Below, in pieces: positions 3,995 through 41,765 of a stretch of DNA of 59,940 nt. The translations under genes and the position numbers were made by a program. Origin of the DNA: Patescibacteria group bacterium (GTDB taxonomy: Bacteria; Patescibacteriota; JABMPQ01; JAQVVF01); NCBI GenBank assembly GCA_041662665.1, contig JBAZSC010000004.1, forward strand, positions 76,464 to 136,403, read 5' to 3'. Under the pieces are notes generated by a model. The model saw only the letters and a program-made list of their open reading frames with translations, searched no databases and had not been told where the DNA came from. Every line of letters starts with the position of its first letter. Position 1 is the first letter of the stretch.

Positions 3995-5149
3995 TTGAGC
4001 AATACAACAATTATTGTCCACTACTCTGAAATCGGTCTTAAAGGCAGAAATAGGAATATCTTTGAAAACAAACTAATTAAAAACATAAAAGCCCACATTA
4101 ATCAATTGGGCTCTTTTAAACTTGTCCATTTGCACGATCGTATTTTGATTGAAATCTCTCAACTCTCACCTCTCATATCCCAAGCTCTTCAAAAAACATT
4201 CGGCATCGCCAATTTCGCAATTGCCAAAACAACAAAATTAGATCTAAACGAAATAAAAGAGCAAGTTTTAAACCTCGCCAAAACAAAAGAATTTACCACT
4301 TTTGCTATTCAAGCCAGTCGTTCCAACAAAAAGTTTCCGCTCACTTCTCAACAAATTAACGAACAAGTCGGTGGAGTAATTTTAGATAATTTAAAAAATA
4401 AAAAAGTAAAATTAAAAAATCCTAATTTAACTATTTATGTTGATATTTTAAAAGACCAAGCTCTAATTTATTCTGAAAAAATCAAAACTTTCGGTGGCTT
4501 ACCAACTGGCACAGCAGGCAATGTTATCTCTTTAATTTCCGGGGGCATTGATTCGCCCGTTGCTTCTTTTCAAATCATGAAACGAGGCTGTCAAATTATT
4601 TTTTGTCATTTCCATTCTTACCCGCAGACTTCAATTGAATCACAAGACCAAGTCAAAAAATTAGTTAGTATTTTAGATCAATATCAGCAAAATTCTAAAT
4701 TATACTTAATTCCAATCCTGGACATTCAAAAACAAATTGTTGCCAAATGCTCTGCCAAACTTCGCGTTGTTTTATACCGCAGAATGATGATGCGAATCGC
4801 CACTAAAATCGCAGAATTAGAAAATGCCAAAGCTTTAATTACCGGCGATTCAATCGGTCAAGTCGCTTCCCAAACTTTAGAAAATATTCAAGCAATTTCC
4901 AATGCTACAGACTTGCCAATTTTTCGCCCACTAGCTGGATTAGACAAAGAAGAAATAATAACTTATGCAAAAAAAATAGAAACTTACGAAACTTCAATCC
5001 AACCTTTTGGCGATTGCTGTTCTCTCTTTATTCCAGATAGTCCAGAAACAAAAGCAAAATTAGATGAAGTTTTAAAAAATGAACGAGAATTAGAAATTGA
5101 TAAATTAATTAATGATTCGTTTCAACAATTAGTTATTAAGCAATTTTAA
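3995..5149 (+). CDS. thiI: tRNA 4-thiouridine synthase ThiI (THUMP + PP-loop, no rhodanese domain)
   Basis: YSEIGLKGRNR N-terminus, PP-loop SGGIDSPVA; TTG start. Confidence 0.85.
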   Translation: MSNTTIIVHYSEIGLKGRNRNIFENKLIKNIKAHINQLGSFKLVHLHDRILIEISQLSPLISQALQKTFGIANFAIAKTTKLDLNEIKEQVLNLAKTKEFTTFAIQASRSNKKFPLTSQQINEQVGGVILDNLKNKKVKLKNPNLTIYVDILKDQALIYSEKIKTFGGLPTGTAGNVISLISGGIDSPVASFQIMKRGCQIIFCHFHSYPQTSIESQDQVKKLVSILDQYQQNSKLYLIPILDIQKQIVAKCSAKLRVVLYRRMMMRIATKIAELENAKALITGDSIGQVASQTLENIQAISNATDLPIFRPLAGLDKEEIITYAKKIETYETSIQPFGDCCSLFIPDSPETKAKLDEVLKNERELEIDKLINDSFQQLVIKQF

Positions 5150-27480: not shown

Positions 27481-28866
27481 TTAACAACTGCTGACATACA
27501 TTTTTTGCTTTATTGCCTCGATTTCTTGTTTTAAGTTGTCATTCTTCTCTAATTCTTTCTTAACTTTTTCGTAAGCATGAATTGCTGTCGTATGATCTCG
27601 TCCACCTGTCTCATCGCCAATTGTTGGATAACTTTTATTTAACTCTCTTCTCATTAAAAACATCGCAATCTGTCTTGGCCAGGCAATATCTTTCCTTCTG
27701 TTCTTCGCCATTATATCAGAAGGATCAATATCATAGAATGAAGCAACTGCCTCAATTATTTCTTTAGAGCTTGTTGTCTGCTTGCTAGGCGCTGTAATAA
27801 TGTCTGTTAAAATTGTTTTGCAGCTTTCAAGCGTTGGAGTGCTGTTGCTAAGCTGGCTATGTGCAATAACTCGACTCAATGCGCCTTCAAGTTCTCTGAT
27901 ATTGCTTTGAACATTAGAAGCAATAAAATCTAAAACGTCTTCTGGAACATTATAAGCCTTCTCTCTGCATTTTGTTGATAAAATTGCTTTTCTTGTTTCT
28001 AAGTCAGGCGCGCTGACATCAGCTACCATTCCGCCTTCAAAACGCGAGACTAATCTTGCTTCAAGACCAGAAATTGCTTTTGGCGGTCTATCTGAAGTTA
28101 ATATTATTTGTTTATTATTCTGAAATAAACTGTTGTAGGCATGAAAAAACGCTTCTTGAGAACTAACTTTTCCAGCTAAAAATTGAATATCATCAATAAT
28201 TAAGACATCGCAATTGCGATAAAAATTTTGAAAATTGACAGTATTACTATCTTGATTTTTATTTCTAATAAAATTAATAAAATCATTAATGAATTTTTCA
28301 GAAGTTGCATAAACAATCTGAGTATCTTTATTCTCTTGCAGTATCCTATTGCCAATTGCTTGAACAAGGTGAGTTTTTCCAAGCCCAACACCGCCGTATA
28401 TGAAAAAAGGATTATAAATTTTACCAGGACTCTTGCAAATTGCTGTTGCTGCTGCCTTTGCTAATTCATTATTCGGACCGATGATGAAATTTTCAAAAAT
28501 ATATTTCGGGTTCAAGCCAGTTTGTATATCTTGGCTTGGCATTACATTTTGTTTTCTTTCGAATGATTCTGCTGGTCTTGCAACTGGTTTTAATGAATCA
28601 ACTGCCTGTGCTGTATTCTTTTTGTTTATCTCGTATGTAAGCTTAGTTACTCTTGAAGATGTAATATTCTGAAGCGCTCTAGCAATATCTTTGTGATATT
28701 TGTTTTGTAACCATTCTTTTGTAAAACCATTAGGCACGCCAATGACATATTCGCCATTAGAGATTAGTAGAACACTGGTTTCTTTAAACCAAGTCGTAAA
28801 ATTTGCCTTGCTCAAAGAGAGCTCAAGCTCTCCAAGCACTCCTTGCCAAATTTGATTATTGTCCAT
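27481..28866 (-). CDS. dnaA: chromosomal replication initiator DnaA
   Basis: Walker A GGVGLGKTHL; C-terminal DnaA signature IGDETGGRDHTTAIHA. Confidence 0.95.
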   Translation of the reverse strand: MDNNQIWQGVLGELELSLSKANFTTWFKETSVLLISNGEYVIGVPNGFTKEWLQNKYHKDIARALQNITSSRVTKLTYEINKKNTAQAVDSLKPVARPAESFERKQNVMPSQDIQTGLNPKYIFENFIIGPNNELAKAAATAICKSPGKIYNPFFIYGGVGLGKTHLVQAIGNRILQENKDTQIVYATSEKFINDFINFIRNKNQDSNTVNFQNFYRNCDVLIIDDIQFLAGKVSSQEAFFHAYNSLFQNNKQIILTSDRPPKAISGLEARLVSRFEGGMVADVSAPDLETRKAILSTKCREKAYNVPEDVLDFIASNVQSNIRELEGALSRVIAHSQLSNSTPTLESCKTILTDIITAPSKQTTSSKEIIEAVASFYDIDPSDIMAKNRRKDIAWPRQIAMFLMRRELNKSYPTIGDETGGRDHTTAIHAYEKVKKELEKNDNLKQEIEAIKQKMYVSSC

Positions 28867-29260
28867 AAAAAATAATGTTTATTTTTTATTTTTAAAAAAA
28901 ATCTGCATTTTTCTGCGTTAGCTTCTGCGTGTTTCTGCGTTAAAAAGCTATTTAACAGTTAGCTTATTAGAAAAAGATAGAAACAATCTAATTTAATTCT
29001 ATCTTGTTAATAAAGTATAGCTTCAATTAAACAAAACATTAAGGATTAATATGTTTACAACTTGTTGAGAACCTGTGGATAACTTAAGTTTATGCTATAT
29101 CTTAAATATGCTGTTGTCAAGAATTATGCTATAATAAAAACAAGGAAACAGAAAATAGAAAACAGTTTGTTTCGCAAGTTTCTGTTTTCTGTTTACTGTT
29201 TTCTTTTTTATGGACAAGAACTAAAAAATTTGCTATTCTCTATAAAATAATTTTAATTTT
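28867..29260. other. candidate oriC / dnaA upstream region
   Basis: Perfect DnaA box TGTGGATAA at 29074-29082, AT-rich tracts, TTCTGCG word repeats (28900-28942), extended -10 TGCTATAAT at 29127-29135. Confidence 0.45.
29144..29203. repeat. palindromic word repeat (AACAGAAAA family)
   Basis: ggaaacagaaaatagaaaacag ... ctgttttctgtttactgttttc; same family at 52402-52466. Confidence 0.75.
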
Positions 29261-32200
29261 ATGTTTGATTTTAGACAAAAGGGCTTAGATAAGCCAAAAG
29301 TTATAAAAACTAATTCTTCAAATATGGCAAATCCAAAGAAAAAATCAGAAAAACAACGCAAAATTGTCATTATTTTTGTTGCTATAGTTACCTTTTTCTT
29401 TTTGGTTTTTGGCGGTATCTTTGCTTTTTATGCAAAAGATCTTCCATCTCCTAGTAAAATTAACTCTAAGAATGTCTCTGAATCAACAAAAATTTATGAT
29501 CGCACTGGAGAAACATTGCTTTACGAGATCCATGGTGGCGAGAAAAGAACGCTAATTCCGCTTTCTGAAATGCCAAAAAGTATTCAGGAGGCCACAATTT
29601 CTGCAGAAGATAAAAATTTTTATCATCATTTTGGTTTTGATCCTATCGGCATTATCCGATCTGCACTCAAGAACACAAAAAGCGATGAAAGAGTCGGCGG
29701 ATCAACAATTACTCAGCAATTAGTCAAAAATACGGCTTTGTCATCAGAAAAAACCTATACTCGAAAAATAAAAGAGCTTATTTTATCAGTTGAAATTGAA
29801 GCTTTATATACAAAAAAAGACATTTTGCAAATGTATTTAAACGAAATTCCTTATGGTTCAAATGCTTATGGTATTGAATCTGCAGCAGAAACTTTTTTTG
29901 GCAAGAAAGCCAAAGATTTAACATTAGCTGAATCAGCCACACTTGCTGCAATCCCTCAAGCTCCTACTTACTATTCTCCTTATGGCGCTAATACTGATGC
30001 TCTCAAAGCTCGCCAGGAATGGATTCTTGATCGTATGGTTGATGACAAATATATTACTAAAGAAGAGGCAGAGCAAGCAAAACAGCAAAAATTTGCCTTT
30101 GTTGAAAAGCAAGAAGGAATTATTGCTCCTCACTTTGTAATGTACGTAAAAGACTTACTTGTCCAAAAATACGGCGAAAAAGAAGTCCAAAAAGGTGGTT
30201 ATAAAGTTTATACAACTTTAGATATGAATTTACAGAAAATTGCTGAAAAAGTTGTTCCTGAAGGCGTCGATAGAAACTATTCATATGGTGCTTCAAATGC
30301 TGCCCTAGCTGCTGTTGATCCAAAAACTGGAGAGATTTTGGCTATGCAAGGCTCAAAAGATTATTTTGATAAAGAAAATGGCGGTAATGTTAATGTTACA
30401 ATCAGAAATCGCCAGCCAGGTTCTTCATTCAAGCCAATTGTTTACGCTTTAGCCTTAAAAAGAGGTTATACTCCTGATACTATTCTTTACGATGTTCCAA
30501 CCGATTTTGGCAATAATTACAAGCCAAGTAATTATGATGGCAAAACTCATGGTCCAGTTACAATGCGTACAGCGCTTTCAAACTCTCTAAATATTCCAGC
30601 TGTTAAAACATTGTATTTGGCTGGTCTTGAAAATACAATTAATTTTGCTCACGATTTAGGCATAACAACACTTGGCGATCCAAGTAATTATGGTTTATCT
30701 CTAGTTTTGGGCGGTGGTGAAGTTAAATTGCTTGATGAAGTATCTGCGTTCAGTGTTTTTGCTAATGATGGAATGAAAAATGATAAAAAAGCTATTTTAA
30801 AAGTTGTCGATCGCAATGGTAAAATCACCCAAGACAATACTAAAGCAGATCCAAAACGAGTTGTTGACGATCAAATTGCTCGCCAACTTTCAAGTATGTT
30901 ATCAGATACAAACGCTCGTCAAATGGTTTTTGGTTCTGCTCCAAATTTAAGATTATCTGATCGTCCAGTTGCTGTAAAAACAGGAACAACTGAAAATTTT
31001 AAAGACGCTTGGACAGTTGGATATACTCCTTCAATTGCCGCTGGTGTTTGGGTTGGCAATAACGATGGTGCTCCAATGAATGCTGGATCTGATGGCTCTT
31101 ATGTTGCTGCACCAATCTGGCATTCTTTTATGGAACAAGCGCTTGCTAACAAGCCAGTTGAAGAATTTCCAGGCTATGATCCAATTAAAGTTGATAAACC
31201 TGTTTTAATGGGCAAATCAGGCTCTGAACAAAAAGTCAGAATCGAAAAAACAACAAAAAAATTAGCAACTAACGATTGTCCAGCTGATGATGTCGAAGAA
31301 ATTACAGTCAGAAGCGCTCATTGTATTCTTTATTATGTTGACAAAGATAATCCAAGAGGCGAAGTTCCAAAAAATCCAGCAGTAGATCCTCAATTCAGAA
31401 ATTGGGAAAGTGGAGTGTTAGCTTGGGCAGGAAAAGATAATAAAGGCATTACCCAAATTCCAACTGAGACAACTGATGTTTGCAGTCCAGCTAAGAAGCC
31501 AAAAATTAATATTACATCTCCAACTGGCGGTTTGATTAAAGAGGATACTATTACTGTAACTGCTAATGCTTCTGCTCCAAATGGTCTAAAAAGCGTTGAT
31601 TTCGCAGTTGACGGCATTTCAATTGGCTCTTCAGCATCCGAACCTTTCTCTGCTAATTTTTATACTGGCAGATTTGAAAATGGCTTTCATACAATTTCAG
31701 CTACAGTTACTGACAAAATAGGTCAAAAAGCCAGCTCTCAAGTTACAATTGAAACAAAAGTTGACCGCGCATCATCTATTTCACTTTCTTCATCAGGTTC
31801 TGGCAATTTGACTAAACAAGATTTTCCAATCAGCTTAACTGCTTCAGTTGTTTATTCAGGAACATTGCAAAAAGTCCAATTTTTGCTTAATGGCGCTGTT
31901 TACGATGAAGTTGGCTCGCCTACTGGCAATTCATTCTCAACAAGCTTAGCCTATCCTGGAACAGGTTCATATTCAGTTCAAGCAGCAGCTGTTGATGAGA
32001 CTGGACGTGCAATCTTTAGTAATCAGGTTTCATTCTCAATTGCAGAAGCAAGTGTTCCAACAAAACCAACTGTACCAGAAAAACCAGTTGCACCGCAAAA
32101 ACCAGCTCCAGACACAACGAAAAATAAAAAATCAAGCTTCTTATTCAAAGTCATTAATAATCTAGCCTATCTAAGCAACTTTGATTTCAGAATAAGCTAA
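29261..32200 (+). CDS. bifunctional class A penicillin-binding protein (GT51 transglycosylase + transpeptidase) with C-terminal Ig-like repeats and a Pro-rich tail
   Basis: EDKNFYHHFGFD, GGSTITQQ (GT51); SSFKP, SNS, KTGTT (transpeptidase). Confidence 0.9.
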   Translation: MFDFRQKGLDKPKVIKTNSSNMANPKKKSEKQRKIVIIFVAIVTFFFLVFGGIFAFYAKDLPSPSKINSKNVSESTKIYDRTGETLLYEIHGGEKRTLIPLSEMPKSIQEATISAEDKNFYHHFGFDPIGIIRSALKNTKSDERVGGSTITQQLVKNTALSSEKTYTRKIKELILSVEIEALYTKKDILQMYLNEIPYGSNAYGIESAAETFFGKKAKDLTLAESATLAAIPQAPTYYSPYGANTDALKARQEWILDRMVDDKYITKEEAEQAKQQKFAFVEKQEGIIAPHFVMYVKDLLVQKYGEKEVQKGGYKVYTTLDMNLQKIAEKVVPEGVDRNYSYGASNAALAAVDPKTGEILAMQGSKDYFDKENGGNVNVTIRNRQPGSSFKPIVYALALKRGYTPDTILYDVPTDFGNNYKPSNYDGKTHGPVTMRTALSNSLNIPAVKTLYLAGLENTINFAHDLGITTLGDPSNYGLSLVLGGGEVKLLDEVSAFSVFANDGMKNDKKAILKVVDRNGKITQDNTKADPKRVVDDQIARQLSSMLSDTNARQMVFGSAPNLRLSDRPVAVKTGTTENFKDAWTVGYTPSIAAGVWVGNNDGAPMNAGSDGSYVAAPIWHSFMEQALANKPVEEFPGYDPIKVDKPVLMGKSGSEQKVRIEKTTKKLATNDCPADDVEEITVRSAHCILYYVDKDNPRGEVPKNPAVDPQFRNWESGVLAWAGKDNKGITQIPTETTDVCSPAKKPKINITSPTGGLIKEDTITVTANASAPNGLKSVDFAVDGISIGSSASEPFSANFYTGRFENGFHTISATVTDKIGQKASSQVTIETKVDRASSISLSSSGSGNLTKQDFPISLTASVVYSGTLQKVQFLLNGAVYDEVGSPTGNSFSTSLAYPGTGSYSVQAAAVDETGRAIFSNQVSFSIAEASVPTKPTVPEKPVAPQKPAPDTTKNKKSSFLFKVINNLAYLSNFDFRIS

Positions 32201-36293: not shown

Positions 36294-36713
36294 TTAAGGT
36301 GCAATTGGAGTCGAGTTGGCTTCTCTTCTTAAAATTAAGACTGCTTTTTCGCCAAATTCTGTTTGGGTGATTGAAACATCAAAAAGATATCTTCCACTAG
36401 GTACAAATTTCGAAGCTACTTTTATGTCAATCAGTCCATTTTGAGGTTTTTCTTTTTCGCTAACATCAAGAAGTGCCATAATTTTAATTCGACTAATCAT
36501 GGTTTCCTTCAGGCTCAATGGCGGACACATCACAAGAACCAGATTTCCATCAATTCTGTAGCTAACTTCAATCCGTTTTTCAACAGGTACGATCTGTATT
36601 TCAGTTCCGCATTGCCTAATTGAGTCTAAAAGAATCATACTCACCATTCTTACAGCTGGATTCGAAGTAAATTCTACAGGTGCATCTTTGCAATCTCTTT
36701 CTGCTTCTGTCAT
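36294..36713 (-). CDS. stand-alone GspE/PilB-type secretion-ATPase N2 domain (no Walker motifs)
   Basis: GTEIQIVPVEKRIEVSYRIDGNLVLV...ISRIKIMALLDVSEKEKPQNGLIDIKV...FDVSITQTEFGEKAVLILR matches the domain preceding Walker A in T2SS/T4P ATPases; GGAGGGAAGGG SD before M24. Confidence 0.65.
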   Translation of the reverse strand: MTEAERDCKDAPVEFTSNPAVRMVSMILLDSIRQCGTEIQIVPVEKRIEVSYRIDGNLVLVMCPPLSLKETMISRIKIMALLDVSEKEKPQNGLIDIKVASKFVPSGRYLFDVSITQTEFGEKAVLILRREANSTPIAP

Positions 36714-36792
36714 TTTCCCTTCCCTCCTCTCTTGGGATGAATTTAAGGTACAATAAACAAAACTAATCAAAACACTGATCAATTATAATATA

Positions 36793-36821
36793 ATTATATC
36801 ATTTTTTAATATCTTTTTCAA
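36793..36821 (-). promoter_or_regulatory. sigma70 promoter TTGAAA-17-TATAAT
   Basis: Minus-strand reading; duplicated at 37366-37394. Confidence 0.55.
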
Positions 36822-36851
36822 GCATAAAAAAACAGACATAAAGTCTGCGAT

Positions 36852-37277
36852 CTAAAGTGCAAATGATGTTGGGTTTACTTCTCGATTCAAAATCAATATT
36901 GCTTTCTCGCCGAATTCTGTTTGTGAAACTGTAACATCAAAATGAAATCGTCTATCAGGCTTGTCTTGAACGCTGACCAACACATTTAACACGCCAGTTT
37001 GCGGCATTTCCGTCATATCTTCGTTTAGGAGAGCAATTTCTTTGATATGAGCAATGGCATAGCCATGCAAATTGAGCTGCGGACGCATCACAAGAGTAAG
37101 ATGTCCATCAATCATGAATTCAATTTCAACTTTGTTCCTAAAAGGAGTAACGTGAATTTCTGTTGCTCCTTGTATTACAGCATCTAGCAACATATTATTT
37201 ATCATCCATTCTGCTGGATTTGATATTGCTCCAGGCGCAGACGAAATGCTTTGGCAATCTCTTTTTTCTTCTGCCAT
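36852..37277 (-). CDS. stand-alone GspE/PilB-type N2 domain, tandem paralog
   Basis: GATEIHVTPFRNKVEIEFMIDGHLTLV...IAHIKEIALLNEDMTEMPQTGVLNVLV...FDVTVSQTEFGEKAILILNR; GGAGGG SD preceded by (AG)8. Confidence 0.65.
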   Translation of the reverse strand: MAEEKRDCQSISSAPGAISNPAEWMINNMLLDAVIQGATEIHVTPFRNKVEIEFMIDGHLTLVMRPQLNLHGYAIAHIKEIALLNEDMTEMPQTGVLNVLVSVQDKPDRRFHFDVTVSQTEFGEKAILILNREVNPTSFAL

Positions 37278-37365
37278 TTTCGTTTTCCCTCCTCTCTCTC
37301 TCTCTCTGAGCCAAAATAAATTACAACAAACTAAACTAATCAAAACGTTGATTAATTCTAATATA

Positions 37366-37394
37366 ATTATATCATTTCTTAATATTTTTTTCAA
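37366..37394 (-). promoter_or_regulatory. sigma70 promoter TTGAAA-17-TATAAT
   Basis: Minus-strand reading; lies inside the over-extended ORF-track ORF 36852..37394. Confidence 0.55.
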
Positions 37395-37459
37395 GCATAA
37401 AAAAACAGCGATGCGCCGTTAATTTAGTTATTTCTAATTTAGTTATTTTGTTATTAACA

Positions 37460-37545
37460 TGGTGGACCTGAGCGGACTCGACCATGAAAATTTTTTATTC
37501 AAAAATTTTCATCCTCCTGCTTGCAAAGCAGGCGCTCTGACATGA
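37460..37545 (-). pseudogene. 5'-truncated tRNA-Ala(UGC) copy with a 29-nt palindromic insertion and encoded CCA
   Basis: Shares anticodon arm (CCTGCTTTGCAAGCAGG), the T-loop with the 3' strand of the T stem (TCGAGTCCGCT; 5' strand lost) and the acceptor 3' strand with the intact gene. ATGAAAATTTTTGAATAAAAAATTTTCAT is inserted before the T-arm. The acceptor 5' strand is missing. Confidence 0.65.
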
Positions 37546-37553
37546 TTTATTTA

Positions 37554-37626
37554 TGGACCTGAGCGGACTCGAACCGCTCACCTCCTGCTTGCAAAGCAGG
37601 CGCTCTACCAGATGAGCTACAGGCCC
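37554..37626 (-). tRNA. tRNA-Ala (anticodon UGC)
   Basis: Cloverleaf folds by hand: GGGCCTG/CAGGTCC acceptor with G3:U70, anticodon loop TTTGCAA, T-loop TTCGAGT; no encoded CCA. Confidence 0.9.
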
Positions 37627-37663
37627 AATATAATAACAAAATAACTAAATTAGAAATGAAAAA

Positions 37664-38275
37664 TTACTTTCTTTCTTCTGTCTTGCTTAACGTATCAGTC
37701 ATTTTTACGTATAAATAAACTAATAACACGCCAATTAATGCCCCACAAGTATTCATTAACAAATCATTTGGCGTATCAAAGCGATCTCCTAGTCTATTAT
37801 TGCTTAGAAAAAAACTTTCTGAATATTCTTCAATCTCGTACAAGACTCCAAGAAAACAAGCTGCAAAAAAGGCATAACTTCCAATCAAATATTTTTTAAA
37901 TTCAACTCTTCTTCTTTTTAATACAGCGCAAAGTATGAAGAATATTAATCCAGCAACTGAAGCTCCGCCTAAGAAATGAGCCATTTGATCATACCATGAA
38001 AATCTGCCATACCATTTAAAAATATCTCCAAATGCATCAATCAACACATTTCCTAATGGAAACAAGAATACAAAACTTGGAATAGTATAATTAAATTTCT
38101 TTTTACAATACCATAACACAAATTCTAAAGCAATCCAAACTACAATTGATGTCAAAGCTAATCCAAACCAGCTAAATTCAAGTTCAAAATGTAAGATGCC
38201 AAAAAGATTAGCTAGCTCAAAACAAGCAAGTGAAGCAAAAGCAATCCTTACAAACCACAGAATTATAATATTCAT
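37664..38275 (-). CDS. polytopic membrane protein (weak VanZ-like resemblance)
   Basis: Five to six hydrophobic helices; FDTPNDLLMNTCGALIGV C-terminal motif. Confidence 0.55.
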   Translation of the reverse strand: MNIIILWFVRIAFASLACFELANLFGILHFELEFSWFGLALTSIVVWIALEFVLWYCKKKFNYTIPSFVFLFPLGNVLIDAFGDIFKWYGRFSWYDQMAHFLGGASVAGLIFFILCAVLKRRRVEFKKYLIGSYAFFAACFLGVLYEIEEYSESFFLSNNRLGDRFDTPNDLLMNTCGALIGVLLVYLYVKMTDTLSKTEERK

Positions 38276-38284
38276 AATAATGAA

Positions 38285-38548
38285 TTATTGTAATCCGCCT
38301 CCAAATAAGCCTTTTAGCATATTTGGTAATGTATGTTGTAAAAAACCAGTCATGTATAATGTTGAAACAGCAGCAATTAAAACGCCCAGCAGTTGCCAGA
38401 ACAATCTTCCGCCACCAAATGTCCCAAAATATTTTTGAGCAAAGCTTGGACTTCCGACATTATTAATTAACCATTCAGATTTTAAAGTTACAAAAACTCC
38501 AATTGCAATACCTATTAATCCTAAAAATATTTGGCCGATTAAAGACAT
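38285..38548 (-). CDS. small membrane protein
   Basis: Two to three hydrophobic helices, backbone-like AT-rich codon usage. Confidence 0.5.
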   Translation of the reverse strand: MSLIGQIFLGLIGIAIGVFVTLKSEWLINNVGSPSFAQKYFGTFGGGRLFWQLLGVLIAAVSTLYMTGFLQHTLPNMLKGLFGGGLQ

Positions 38549-38633: not shown

Positions 38634-38710
38634 TGGTGGGCGCACTTAGATTCGAACTAAGGACCTCGTCATTATCAGTGACGCGCTCTAACCAACTGAG
38701 CTATGCGCCC
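38634..38710 (-). tRNA. tRNA-Ile (anticodon GAU), CCA encoded
   Basis: GGGCGCA/TGCGCCC acceptor, D-arm GCTC/GAGC, anticodon loop CTGATAA, T-arm CTTAG-TTCGAAT-CTAAG, ACCA end. Confidence 0.9.
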
Positions 38711-38858
38711 ATAAATAAATAACAAAATAACTAAATTTTAAATAACAAAATATCTTTTGCTTTCCTTACTATTTTAACATCAAAAAATATTTCTTTCAAG
38801 TCTTTATGTCCAAAAGTTTTAAAAAGTGCAATATGTGTGTGCACATTACCCAAGAATC

Positions 38859-38937: not shown

Positions 38938-39600
38938 ATGAGCAACAGAGAGCCAGAAATCACACTGCCAGTAGTCATTCAACGGGACTTTTTCACTTCT
39001 CTTTCCGACGATCAAGCTATTCAGATCTTGATTCCTATCATTGGCGAAAAAGAAGCTCGCGCTTATGTCCAGAAGTGCCGTTATTTTGCAATTGACCATT
39101 TCAACAACTACGAGGGTACAATCTTTTGGTTGGTTAAAGCTGGCTACACACTGAAACAGCATGCTTCCAAACTTGGTCCGTGCTACAAGAATTTCGATTA
39201 TTTACAGACCTGGAATTTCAACGATGAGCCAACTTTTGACAGTCTTGTTTTCTGGGTTCCCAGACTTGTTCCTGACGGCATTCGAAAAACAGCAAATGAA
39301 CAGTTGAATTATCTCGCCAGACTTAGCAAGAAGTACGATCTGCCAGCCGATCATCTTACTGATTTCGGCAGTGTCACCTTAAACAGCGGTCTCATTTTGA
39401 GCTACTTCAACCAGACAAAGGAACGAGTTCCTCCGGATCGGTTGTGGATCAGGACTTCTGCTCGCGGCTCCGATGGCAGTCGTTTCGACCTGGGCGACTT
39501 TGATGAGCGAGGCCTCTACTGCAGCGGCTACGATTTGGGTGGCGGTTTCGTTGACGATCTTGGCTGTTTCGCTCTAGGTATTGTAAAGCTCGCAGCATAA
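38938..39600 (+). CDS. orphan 220-aa protein, SD-led cassette inside the 16S/tRNA-Ile spacer
   Basis: GAGGAGGAGG 7 nt before ATG; highest GC of any CDS here by eye (3' end near 50%); hairpin terminator follows. Confidence 0.6.
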   Translation: MSNREPEITLPVVIQRDFFTSLSDDQAIQILIPIIGEKEARAYVQKCRYFAIDHFNNYEGTIFWLVKAGYTLKQHASKLGPCYKNFDYLQTWNFNDEPTFDSLVFWVPRLVPDGIRKTANEQLNYLARLSKKYDLPADHLTDFGSVTLNSGLILSYFNQTKERVPPDRLWIRTSARGSDGSRFDLGDFDERGLYCSGYDLGGGFVDDLGCFALGIVKLAA

Positions 39601-39925: not shown

Positions 39926-41541
<1,616 letters not shown>

Positions 41542-41765
41542 TAAATATCTATAATTAATAAATTAATCATAGATCAACTAAAAAATTTAAAGTAAGCTTG
41601 TTAGCTCAAAATAAACGGAATTAACGTAAAACTCTTATCACTATTTAATTATCAAAGTGCGAGAATTATAGACTGATTCTTTTTAATTTTTGAAGTTAAA
41701 AAATATCAAGCTACAATTTTCATAGCTATTTTTACAGATTTACTTGTAAGTAATTTAGTACTTAA

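Follow-up and report, generated by a model that had tools for sequence, protein, structure and literature searches.

The window analyzed here is a 59,940-nt (60-kb) stretch of DNA from an uncultured groundwater bacterium (Patescibacteria), and the locus of interest is the former 16S-tRNAIle-tRNAAla spacer of an rrn operon. Both spacer tRNA genes are still present on the minus strand, together with two genes for membrane proteins, and a promoter-like site upstream of tRNA-Ile is the predicted start of a transcription unit that extends to tRNA-Ala (Table 1). A homologous TTGAAA promoter was also found upstream of tRNA-Ile in the relatives L007 and L105, an equivalent terminator in L003, L005, L007, and L105, and the ORF87/DUF2238 synteny is kept in L005, L006, L007, L074, and L105. 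The neighboring genes encode DUF2238, T2SSE-N cassettes, DUF4446, bactofilin, DAGK, and PBP1A, or have no Pfam match; the PilB-N cassettes match Pfam T2SSE over the N-terminal part only. The intact tRNA-Ala gene, which the original prediction had recognized from the sequence, was confirmed by both programs applied. It has G3:U70 and A73, does not encode CCA, and agrees at each of positions 1-73 with its counterparts in L005 and L007, which do encode CCA.

Table 1. Features of the tRNA-Ile/tRNA-Ala transcription unit and its downstream border, in order of transcription.
Feature	Position in window	Strand	Remarks
Promoter-like site TTGAAA-17-TAAAAT with TG extension	38771..38799	-	10/12 match
Copy (a), AT-rich repeat in tRNA-Ile leader	38711..38751	-	Complementary to trailer (c)
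tRNA-Ile(GAU), CCA encoded	38634..38710	-	
ORF87 (small membrane protein) and 203-aa DUF2238 membrane protein	37664..38548	-	Between both spacer tRNAs
Copy (b), left inverted-repeat arm, native tRNA-Ala leader	37631..37657	-	Ends 4 nt ahead of gene
Intact tRNA-Ala(UGC)	37554..37626	-	ARAGORN; Rfam tRNA 68.1 bits
15-nt spacer TAAATAAATCATGTC (RNA sense)	37539..37553	-	New 3' flank of working tRNA-Ala
Fragment block B, tRNA positions 22-46	37513..37538	-	Exact 26-nt copy of 37581-37606
29-nt perfect AT palindrome	37484..37512	-	Stands in place of tRNA positions 47-51
Fragment block C	37460..37483	-	37463-37481 (19 nt) exactly duplicates 37554-37572
Copy (c), right inverted-repeat arm, native tRNA-Ala trailer	37420..37456	-	27 nt perfectly complementary to (b)
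Intrinsic-terminator-like hairpin, then run of 7 T	37404..37420	-	End of tRNA transcription unit
Promoter TTGAAA-17-TATAAT of first PilB-N cassette	37366..37394	-	11/12 match; context, outside the tRNA unit

Downstream of the intact gene lies a second, partial copy, which had been placed at a distance of 8 nt; its tRNA-homologous part starts 15 nt after the intact gene. The parts reported as retained and lost were borne out by two blocks with exact copies of 26 and 19 nt. Block B comprises the D-stem 3' strand, the whole anticodon arm, and AGG, while block C comprises G52 and G53, the T loop (one T missing), the T-stem 3' strand, the acceptor 3' strand, A73, and CCA. The exact 19-nt repeat within block C spans the T loop to A73, with a repeat spacing of 91. 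Between the blocks stands the palindrome, which is perfect over 29 nt as predicted, with 12-nt arms and a 5-nt loop, and the tRNA positions lost at this site are the end of the variable loop and the first 3 nt of the T-stem 5' strand. Both copies end in CATGT. It also proved correct that CCA follows the fragment (37460-37462; TGG on the plus strand) and not the intact gene.

No tRNA match was found in 37457-37553 even at E ≤ 10 (Rfam RF00005; 29-bit gathering threshold), and ARAGORN found the intact gene alone in its default, intron, and low-threshold modes, which rules out a functional or intron-containing tRNA. In its predicted fold, the fragment forms two hairpins, that of the anticodon and the AT hairpin, and leaves the tail unpaired. 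Membership in a known RNA family was also rejected, as the fragment and the analogous L052 units gave sub-threshold chance matches only. Judged by its sequence, the fragment is a non-functional partial duplicate of the tRNA-Ala 3' portion.

Small palindromic insertion elements are known from bacteria, namely, REP/RAYT-type repeats, Rickettsia palindromic elements, and MITEs. The hairpins described here resemble them in being perfect or near-perfect palindromes of 20-105 nt in non-essential DNA, including remnants of RNA genes. In contrast to such elements, the AT palindrome has a single copy in the 60-kb window and replaces 5 nt rather than being a plain insertion. A scan of a metagenome collection returned 30 loci, 29 of which were chance matches with other loops and one the window's own contig, and scans of viral contigs for this hairpin and for that of the relative L003 were both empty. 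The sole other occurrence is in the same tRNA-Ala remnant in L073. A dispersed mobile (REP-like) palindrome was ruled out, as these scans gave no copies at unrelated sites. Dispersed families of palindromes are carried by the relatives.

The arrangement is real and not an assembly artifact. An independent ENA/JGI contig (L001 = L076; a k141 MEGAHIT contig) is identical across it. Logan contigs of two runs, one of 2022 (13-15x depth) and one of 2018 (5x depth), also extend across the fragment and show 0 differences. Furthermore, the 26- and 19-nt repeats are shorter than k = 31, so each junction was read directly.

Comparison of the same locus among relatives revealed that the fragment is variable: it is present in L073 and absent in L005, L007, L105, L003, L006, and L074. 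The unoccupied site, with a single tRNA-Ala followed by trailer and terminator, was found in L005, L007 (also L109 and L111-L113), and L105. In L005 and L007, an identical tRNA-Ala is followed by CCA, by (A/T)(A/G)TTAATAA…, and by the terminator, and no fragment is present. The window has this CCA-trailer-terminator string behind the fragment, not behind the intact gene. If one 91-nt unit, delimited by the 19-nt direct repeat, is deleted, the order found in the relatives returns, and CATGT at the ends of both copies is what a tandem duplication is expected to leave. Comparison of these flanks shows that the fragment rather than the working gene keeps the ancestral 3' end, with CCA, trailer, and terminator.

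Signs of allele turnover were seen at this locus in relatives. In L073, remnants of two alleles surround a third, intact allele; one remnant is the window's hairpin fragment, with the same 29-nt AT hairpin beside a different tRNA-Ala allele. This fragment is identical to that of the window at 62 of 63 positions, while the flanking genes have merely 74-85% nucleotide identity. L003 has a 5' remnant of the window-type tRNA-Ala followed by a different intact allele. For tRNA-Ile, it retains the 3' part of another allele, in which positions 47-51 are again the site of an AT hairpin, here a different one. L105 has yet another tRNA-Ala allele. The gene trees of the two flanking genes conflict, which points to recombination among lineages. 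The region downstream of the fragment is hypervariable, and relatives have other genes or nothing in the position of the PilB-N cassettes.

Two structural patterns recur at these loci. In at least four independent cases (the window/L073 tRNA-Ala, L003 tRNA-Ile, L052 tRNA-Lys, and L067), a hairpin stands in for almost the same stretch of the tRNA, and its right junction falls at 51/52 (±1). The copies are 23 nt apart in L003 and 53 nt apart (twice) in L052, with nothing enclosed. All differences between the two L052 units fall in loops or amount to a compensatory pair, and the L052 spacer resembles that tRNA's own upstream terminator and leader. The second pattern is that of repeat-bracketed intact tRNAs nested inside broken tRNAs of the same type (L060, L062, and L073). 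In all three, the outer pieces are decayed, have lost stem strands, and cannot be rejoined into a tRNA. The leader/trailer repeats measure 12 nt in L073, 14 nt in L060, and 13 nt in L062, compared with 4-9 nt at other tRNAs. L060 and L062 share their repeat, with matching one-base deletions in both arms, and the target gene is uninterrupted in L039 and L043. Archaea are known to have disrupted, split, or nested tRNA genes, and mobile elements have been proposed as the fragmenting agents. The nested cases resemble the archaeal genes in the place of interruption (anticodon loop or D arm) and in their complementary flanks, but they occur in Bacteria, their outer pieces are decayed, and the insert is a complete tRNA of the same type.

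The pair of tRNA-Ala copies had been described as bracketed by a perfect 26-bp inverted repeat. The repeat exists and is one nucleotide longer than reported, being perfect over 27 nt (37430-37456/37631-37657). Among the perfect inverted repeats of the 60-kb window whose arms are separated by ≤300 nt, no other is as long, and 20 composition-preserving shuffles yielded 12-16 nt. The inner 20-mer has three exact copies (37436-37455 on the minus strand, 37632-37651, and 38718-38737), the last of which lies upstream of tRNA-Ile as the original prediction had noted; the expectation is ~0.2 matches even when 3 mismatches are allowed. Copy (a), located ~13 nt past the predicted start of transcription, can pair with trailer (c) over 34 nt at 91%, with the 20-nt exact core at 38718-38737. 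The duplex (b)/(c) has a predicted energy of -32 kcal/mol (z -9.9), the duplex (a)/(c) one of -27 kcal/mol (z -6.6), and the fold a z of -9.9. The arms fall between the predicted promoter and the terminator; the trailer arm, which contains an internal 15-nt tandem duplication, lies directly before the terminator.

Homologs of these arms were found separately. L007, which lacks both the fragment and the right arm, has a homolog of leader (b) in the corresponding position, and a homolog of trailer (c) comes after the tRNA-Ala of L105, where the left arm is damaged; the conserved leader of L007 and the conserved trailer of L105 are mutually complementary. These homologs identify the inverted repeat as putative ancestral leader/trailer complementarity, separate from the fragment. 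It is not part of a scar; its arms are a native leader and a native trailer that can be recognized in relatives. No single relative keeps the strong duplex (z -1.6 in L105 and +0.5 in L007), the tRNA-Ile leaders of L005, L007, and L105 have no copy (a), and neither L005, L007, L003, and L074 nor most of the other tRNAs examined have long leader/trailer complementarity. Unrelated strong duplexes flank tRNAs in L073, L060, and L062. Leader/trailer pairing as a general trait of Patescibacteria tRNAs was rejected, with a complement of ≤9 nt at 44 of 48 tRNAs, equal to the null. Since it is not general in relatives, the complementarity is dispensable. For inversion of the segment between the arms, the contigs contained no opposite-strand joint at the arms.

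The pairing of the arms is perfect in this lineage, probably by templated correction of one arm on the other, and an inverted copy of the trailer would also have been placed in the tRNA-Ile leader. Quasipalindromes are known to be corrected by intramolecular template switching (Ripley-type mutations). A correction of this kind could turn an imperfect leader/trailer match into one that is perfect over 27 nt and could change both arms without selection. Because of this third copy, the predicted transcript (38799 to 37404) can pair at its outermost 5' and 3' ends, and the sequences that flank tRNA-Ala and the remnant could likewise do so. In rRNA operons, leader/spacer complementarity forms a processing stem that is cleaved by RNase III. 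The stem described here is similar in being a long duplex (27 bp perfect, or 34 nt at 91%) around stable RNAs of one unit, but differs in that it encloses tRNAs, two protein genes, and a pseudogene, and in that it is missing in several close relatives. This analogy suggests that the stem may act like the processing stems of rRNA operons, as an RNase III-type cleavage or stabilizing site that splits the tRNAs from the mRNA part.

The best explanation for these observations, to which we give slightly better than an even chance, is a dead tRNA-Ala remnant from recurrent allele turnover, accompanied by a separate native leader/trailer stem. The fragment would be the original 3' portion of the gene, still attached to its original CCA, trailer, and terminator, and a local duplication or insertion of ~91 bp inside the gene would have displaced it downstream. 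The working tRNA would now take the upstream copy of the T-loop/acceptor block; as this copy has no CCA, CCA must be added post-transcriptionally. In the redundant copy, the AT palindrome would have replaced positions 47-51, destroying the T arm and splitting the homology into 26 + 19 nt. This may be one episode of recurrent tRNA-Ala/tRNA-Ile turnover in this Patescibacteria clade, in which incoming alleles would enter or adjoin resident ones, with 5' or 3' pieces remaining. As the mechanism, we infer recombination among co-occurring relatives, most likely unequal, microhomology-mediated, or homology-facilitated. Three observations speak against a simple relic. First, the hairpin fragment is near-identical in L073 despite the diverged flanks, whereas a neutral relic should diverge, so recent exchange or constraint is needed. 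Second, the recurring hairpin position with its near-constant junction is not predicted by random decay. Third, the 9-nt TAAATAAAT after the working gene extends the complementarity to the tRNA-Ile leader, which a simple tandem duplication leaves unexplained.

Integrative elements are known to leave partial tRNA or tmRNA copies (van der Gulik et al., 2023, PMC9897764; Dehalococcoides ssrA islands, PMC3146451), and the original prediction regarded the fragment as an integration scar. What stands of this claim is a partial duplicate of a tRNA 3' end that is variably present and has a hypervariable region downstream; there is no element between the copies, and no integrase among the neighboring genes scanned. 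The fragment had also been placed right beside the PilB-N cassettes, but the trailer, the terminator (37420-37404), and a promoter (37394-37366) intervene, and the two tRNA copies do not bracket the cassettes. The corresponding explanation, which we consider unlikely, is that an integrative element targeting tRNA genes left a classic attR scar and was itself lost later. The attP would have carried a tRNA-Ala-like 3' segment with the hairpin in place of the T-stem 5' strand, and a crossover in the block from T loop to 3' end would have given the intact gene a CCA-less, element-derived end, leaving P-arm, hairpin, core, and chromosomal CCA/trailer downstream. As at att sites, the direct repeat is a tRNA 3' end beside a hypervariable region, the partial copy keeps the ancestral chromosomal flank, and this copy is non-functional and easily mis-annotated. 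The identical hairpin beside the core in the divergent L073 would fit repeated integration by one element family. The constant 51/52 junction would also fit integrases that use the T-loop sublocation of tRNA genes, as Williams is said to have described in 2002. In the Dehalococcoides ssrA islands, similarly, an element-derived, non-tRNA motif abuts each direct repeat, with the crossover in the T loop (PMC3146451).

However, in the known att cases the complete and partial copies stand at opposite ends of an integrase-bearing element of 9-23 kb or larger (PMC9897764, PMC3146451), whereas the window copies are 15 nt apart with no element or integrase, their repeat is split by a perfect palindrome, and the variable genes lie outside the repeat pair. 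In L003 and L052, too, nothing lies between the copies, at distances of 23 nt and (twice) 53 nt. At least three deletions would have had to end precisely at both att copies, each independently of the others, which is unlikely; clean excision would leave no scar. No integrase, recombinase, or mobile-element gene was found among the neighboring genes scanned in the window or at ~15 related loci. The hairpin was not found in viral contigs or other metagenome contigs, and the likeness of the L052 spacer to its own upstream terminator and leader points to local duplication. The arrangement was absent from phage, plasmid, and viral contigs, and BLAST gave ordinary tRNA-Ala homology, with no record covering 80% of the query; a phage or plasmid origin was ruled out by these searches. 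The first gene of the L073 island was also rejected as an element marker, as its homologs are widespread and occur in housekeeping contexts.

Somewhat less probable, and proposed here tentatively, is that Patescibacteria have a dedicated, integrase-independent route of tRNA gene replacement, or a class of functional tRNA-derived elements, with two stereotyped products and the window pair as one member. One product may be an intact tRNA that is bracketed by 12-27-bp inverted repeats and has been inserted into, or next to, a resident tRNA gene of its own type. The other may be a downstream copy of positions ~22-76 in which a perfect hairpin replaces 47-51, with the junction at 51/52.

Slightly more doubtful is that the hairpin-bearing copy of the tRNA 3' two-thirds is by itself a functional cis element or small RNA of Patescibacteria, such as a protein-binding or recombination site at the edge of the variable region, a substrate or decoy of tRNA enzymes, or a guide-like hairpin with a tRNA-matching tail. 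The identity of 62/63 against a nucleotide background of 74-85% would be consistent with such a role, as would an architecture that is the same in four tRNA types: the copy starts near position 22, perfect hairpins replace the stem 5' strands, the T loop to the 3' end is kept (with or without CCA), and the unit is always downstream of an intact tRNA of the same type. The two L052 units, with differences confined to loops or a compensatory pair, point in the same direction, but compensatory changes in palindromes can arise by templated self-correction without selection. Furthermore, the hairpin sequences are wholly different between cases, the element is missing in the closest relatives L005, L007, and L105, it has no Rfam match, and the folded fragment is without a convincing common structure. 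The sample is also small, and the pattern was seen post hoc.

We consider it improbable that the 27-bp repeats are terminal inverted repeats of a small MITE-like cassette carrying tRNA-Ala, as in L060, L062, and L073. Strong leader/trailer repeats occur almost only where tRNA remnants occur (the window, L073, L060, and L062), and the repeat shared by L060 and L062, with its paired deletions, and the uninterrupted target gene in L039 and L043 would fit such a cassette. However, L007 has the native leader that corresponds to the left arm but no right arm, and L105 has the native trailer that corresponds to the right arm, so the pair was not inserted as a unit. There is no target-site duplication at the flanks, and the three copies at these tRNAs are the only copies of the repeat. 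The repeats also have unrelated sequences from case to case, which rules out one transposase for all of them. Least probable by far is a chimera assembled from strains that share the tRNA sequence: tRNA genes are graph hubs in metagenome assemblies and many contigs break at these tRNAs, but the same sequence, with directly read junctions, was found in the window, the MEGAHIT contig, and the Logan contigs of two runs at the organism's depth, and L073, from a different study, has identical hairpin junctions.

Taken as a dead remnant beside a native stem, the locus is mostly ordinary, and the recurring regularity of hairpin copies and nested tRNAs is its only potentially novel part. For annotation, the fragment should be labeled a tRNA-Ala pseudogene or remnant, neither a gene nor an island boundary. 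These bacteria have tiny genomes and are presumably competent, and in them the single-copy spacer tRNAs of a broken rrn operon would be hot spots where alleles are replaced with no visible integrase. A working tRNA can shift from encoded to added CCA during replacement. If the stem is cleaved, the end-pairing typical of rRNA would have been reused for a mixed tRNA/mRNA operon. If it is true that the hairpin copies and the nested tRNAs share one mechanism, they may represent a new route of bacterial tRNA turnover or a tRNA-derived element.

The fragment downstream of the intact tRNA-Ala(UGC) gene is a partial second copy with an AT palindrome and an encoded CCA, as the original prediction held, although it begins 15 nt after the intact gene rather than 8 nt. 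Blocks B and C are exact duplicates of the matching parts of the intact gene, with a copy spacing of 91 nt. In the alignment to the tRNA model, the palindrome substitutes for tRNA positions 47-51, namely, the last two bases of the variable loop and the first three of the T-stem 5' strand. ARAGORN and the Rfam tRNA model recovered the intact gene, and neither these nor folding identified the fragment as a tRNA. With moderate confidence, we regard the fragment as a non-functional relic: at a tRNA locus prone to recombination, a local duplication or the replacement of an allele would have produced a redundant copy, the palindrome would be a later event that stabilised or inactivated it, and the inverted repeat around the pair would be an independent leader/trailer stem, probably acting at the RNA level.

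Features of the tRNA-Ala locus, in minus-strand gene order (window coordinates)
Feature	Position	Strand	Remarks
16S rRNA gene	39926-41545	minus	1620 nt vs. 1533-position model
Unrelated 220-aa ORF	38938-39600	plus	No Pfam match; between 16S gene and tRNA-Ile promoter
Strong promoter	38799-38771	minus	
tRNA-Ile; ORF87; DUF2238 membrane protein		minus	
Inverted repeat, perfect, 27 nt	37631-37657 / 37430-37456		Brackets the tRNA-Ala pair
Intact tRNA-Ala(UGC)	37626..37554	minus	ARAGORN; Rfam 68.1 bits
Fragment block B, 26 nt	37538..37513	minus	D-stem 3' strand, complete anticodon arm, AGG
Fragment AT palindrome, perfect, 29 nt	37512..37484	minus	
Fragment GG + block C, 19 nt	37481..37463 (block C)	minus	T loop minus one T, T-stem 3' strand, acceptor 3' strand, A73
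Fragment CCA	37462..37460	minus	
Terminator	37420-37404	minus	
New promoter	37394-37366	minus	
Two tandem N-terminal-only PilB/GspE ATPase cassettes	36294-37394	minus	~570 bp each; Pfam T2SSE positions 5-110, ~110 residues
DUF4446; bactofilin; DAGK-like gene; PBP1A		minus	

The source is a groundwater Patescibacteria (CPR) genome, of which 60 kb was covered. No 23S or 5S rRNA gene was found within these 60 kb, and the former 16S-tRNAIle-tRNAAla spacer now contains protein genes and its own promoter, which indicates an unlinked, broken rrn operon. The length of the 16S gene suggests an insertion of ~90 nt. At the position of the 220-aa ORF, two of the loci fetched from other Patescibacteria genomes (L-numbers) have a LAGLIDADG endonuclease gene (L005) and a 23S_rRNA_IVP protein (L074). 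Together with both tRNAs and the fragment, the two genes for membrane proteins appear to form a single transcription unit. The PilB-N cassettes do lie downstream of the fragment as predicted, but a terminator and a new promoter intervene, such that they belong to the next unit. A TTGAAA-17-TATAAT promoter and a GA-repeat 5' UTR are present separately for each cassette; there are three PilB-N genes in L073 and none at this position in L007 and L105. Judging from synteny with L105 and L117, dnaA and dnaN would lie ~8 kb away (window ~27481-32200), which would place this variable locus near the replication origin.

Approximately 15 syntenic loci were fetched via homologues of DUF2238 and DUF4446, which allowed the alignment that the original prediction had called for: the fragment is present in L073 and absent in L005, L007, L109, and L111-L113. 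These fragment-free loci have a tRNA-Ala identical to that of the window, followed by CCA, an (A/T)(A/G)TTAATAA trailer, and a terminator. In L007 and L105, DUF4446 directly follows the tRNA-Ala and terminator, which makes them empty sites. In the window, the CCA-trailer-terminator string trails the fragment and the intact gene is instead trailed by a novel TAAATAAATCATGTC; thus, the fragment holds the ancestral 3' end and the 3' end of the working gene is a secondary copy. Removal of one 91-nt unit restores the ancestral state. CATGT follows both copies, which would fit a tandem duplication of approximately positions 22-76 plus 5 nt. The encoded CCA is also missing from other tRNA-Ala alleles (L003, L006, L073, L074, and L105), so its loss should be tolerated.

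Remnants of tRNA genes recur at this locus. Two relics were found in L003, the closest relative by DUF2238 (84%). The first is what remains of the 5' part of the window-type tRNA-Ala, with many palindromic inserts and a different intact allele behind it. The second, downstream of tRNA-Ile, stems from the 3' part of another tRNA-Ile allele; here too positions 47-51 have given way to an AT palindrome, a different one of 30 nt. L073 has, in order, the 5' remains of one tRNA-Ala allele, a third allele that is intact and lies within a 12-nt perfect inverted repeat, a ~90-nt repeat-flanked insert, and a window-type remnant (GCAAGCAGGAGG, the identical 29-nt hairpin, and GGTTCGAGTCCGCTCAGGTCCA), which 7 nt separate from the first gene of the island there. 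This 63-nt block is one indel apart from that of the window, with flanking genes 74-85% identical in nucleotides. The gene trees of the two flanking genes conflict, which indicates that these lineages exchange DNA across the locus. The first gene of the L073 island (L073:1531-1989) encodes a 152-aa protein without a Pfam domain; its homologues (P0056-P0175) are 55-70% identical across Parcubacteria, Moranbacteria, and DPANN archaea, and occur in housekeeping neighbourhoods, with one fusion to a PEP-utilizer domain.

Hairpin-replaced 3' tRNA copies were found after tRNA-Ala (window and L073), tRNA-Ile (L003), and tRNA-Lys (L052), and a tRNA-Ile-like piece in L067 has a like replacement. In L052 (1830-2046), two tandem ~107-nt units behind tRNA-Lys each copy the tRNA from position ~22 through its 3' end, and GC hairpins take the place of the anticodon-stem and T-stem 5' strands. 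The units differ only in loops or by one compensatory pair, and the housekeeping genes DnaB and flavodoxin lie on either side. The retained right-hand block begins at G52/G53 (±1) in every case, a regularity noticed post hoc among four or five independent cases.

The bracketing inverted repeat was also present as predicted, at 27 nt instead of 26 bp, and no other close-range inverted repeat in the window is as long; shuffled sequence gave 12-16 nt. Its 20-nt core recurs just upstream of tRNA-Ile, again as predicted, giving three copies: tRNA-Ile leader (a), tRNA-Ala leader (b), and tRNA-Ala trailer (c). When these were aligned with relatives, the left arm (b) proved to be the native tRNA-Ala leader, conserved in L007, and the right arm (c) the native trailer, which is also conserved in L105, behind tRNA-Ala. 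The leader of L007 and the trailer of L105 are complementary over ~15 nt, so complementarity is ancestral, and one arm or the other was lost in different lineages. The window's arms match without exception over 27 nt, and such exact identity favours templated correction over slow compensatory evolution. Copy (a), which looks like a trailer of the L105 kind in inverted orientation, was not found in the tRNA-Ile leaders of L005, L007, and L105. The predicted transcription start lies ~13 nt ahead of copy (a), and (c) extends to the terminator; thus, the two ends of the transcript are able to pair. The computed (a)/(c) duplex has -27 kcal/mol (z -6.6), and the alternative (b)/(c) pairing around tRNA-Ala and remnant has -32 kcal/mol (z -9.9). 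We infer a predicted rRNA-operon-like processing or stabilising stem. With the 9 nt that now stand behind the working tRNA-Ala (TAAATAAAT), the complementarity to the tRNA-Ile leader becomes longer (37545-37556 vs. 38709-38720); were the fragment removed, the trailer would be perfectly complementary to that leader over 27 nt and lie directly against both tRNAs. The preferred model does not explain this.

Among 48 tRNAs of the fetched loci, scanned with 60-nt trailers that do not reach the window's own repeat beyond the fragment, leader/trailer complements >9 nt occur only in L060, L062, and L073, so such pairing is not general. In all three, an intact tRNA is nested in a broken one of its own type. 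L060 and L062 have a tRNA-Thr, bracketed by CCCCGTTAGAAA(A)T and its complement, inside the anticodon loop of another tRNA-Thr; this outer gene is intact in L039 and L043, and in L060 its two acceptor strands still match. These two Giovannonibacteria genomes (L060:6340-6560 and L062:4530-4720, both minus strand) have 13-14-nt perfect inverted repeats, which differ from each other by single-base deletions that match between left and right arm.

The regular junction and the window/L073 conservation are not explained by simple decay. A classic att-scar of an integrating element would account for the constant junction and the identical hairpin in L073, and has a precedent in Dehalococcoides ssrA repeats (PMC3146451). 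However, none of the loci examined has the element that it requires, and it also calls for repeated deletions of improbable precision; we consider it unlikely. No recombinase was found at the related loci examined, phage and plasmid records matched only as ordinary tRNA-Ala, and the 29-nt hairpin had no other occurrence in the collections scanned. That the fragment is a functional hairpin-tRNA element seems less likely still. A MITE-like tRNA cassette is improbable. An assembly artefact as the source of the tandem copy is barely conceivable, as an independent assembly has the same structure and contigs of two sequencing runs four years apart carry it with 0 differences at the organism's depth, which confirms the observation.

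Several palindromic elements were seen in the relatives, whose genomes also carry dispersed palindromic mini-elements. A GC-rich 20-nt palindrome (CCTGCCTRCCGGCAGGCAGG), absent from the window, lies inside tRNA remnants or leaders/trailers of AT-rich relatives (L003:1198-1215, L067:4990-5007, L073:1140-1157, and L074:~4030-4060). A ~50-nt palindromic element (CCGCCTTCGTCC…GGACTACGGCGG) is inserted into a remnant of tRNA-Ala in one case and into the DUF4446 5' UTR in other genomes (L073:1203-1254, L115:1300-1350, and L116:~470-520), and appears to be a dispersed mini-element family. AT-rich inserts of ~90-105 nt with 15-17-nt inverted termini occupy anticodon loops of tRNA-Ala remnants (L003:1213-1335 and L073:1366-1460); in contigs from the window's own samples (runs X1/X2), the same terminus (…AAATTTGGTGCGGGG) adjoins tRNA-Ile-like sequence. 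These inserts may be a MITE family targeting tRNA genes.

Partial tRNA genes derived from integrating elements are well documented, and their usual place is the distal end of an element of 9-23 kb (PMC9897764). The predicted integration scar shares with them the direct repeat and the variable neighbourhood, whereas the defining intervening element with a recombinase is missing here. Under the preferred reading of a local relic, the arrangement is best filed with tRNA gene remnants, as a variant.
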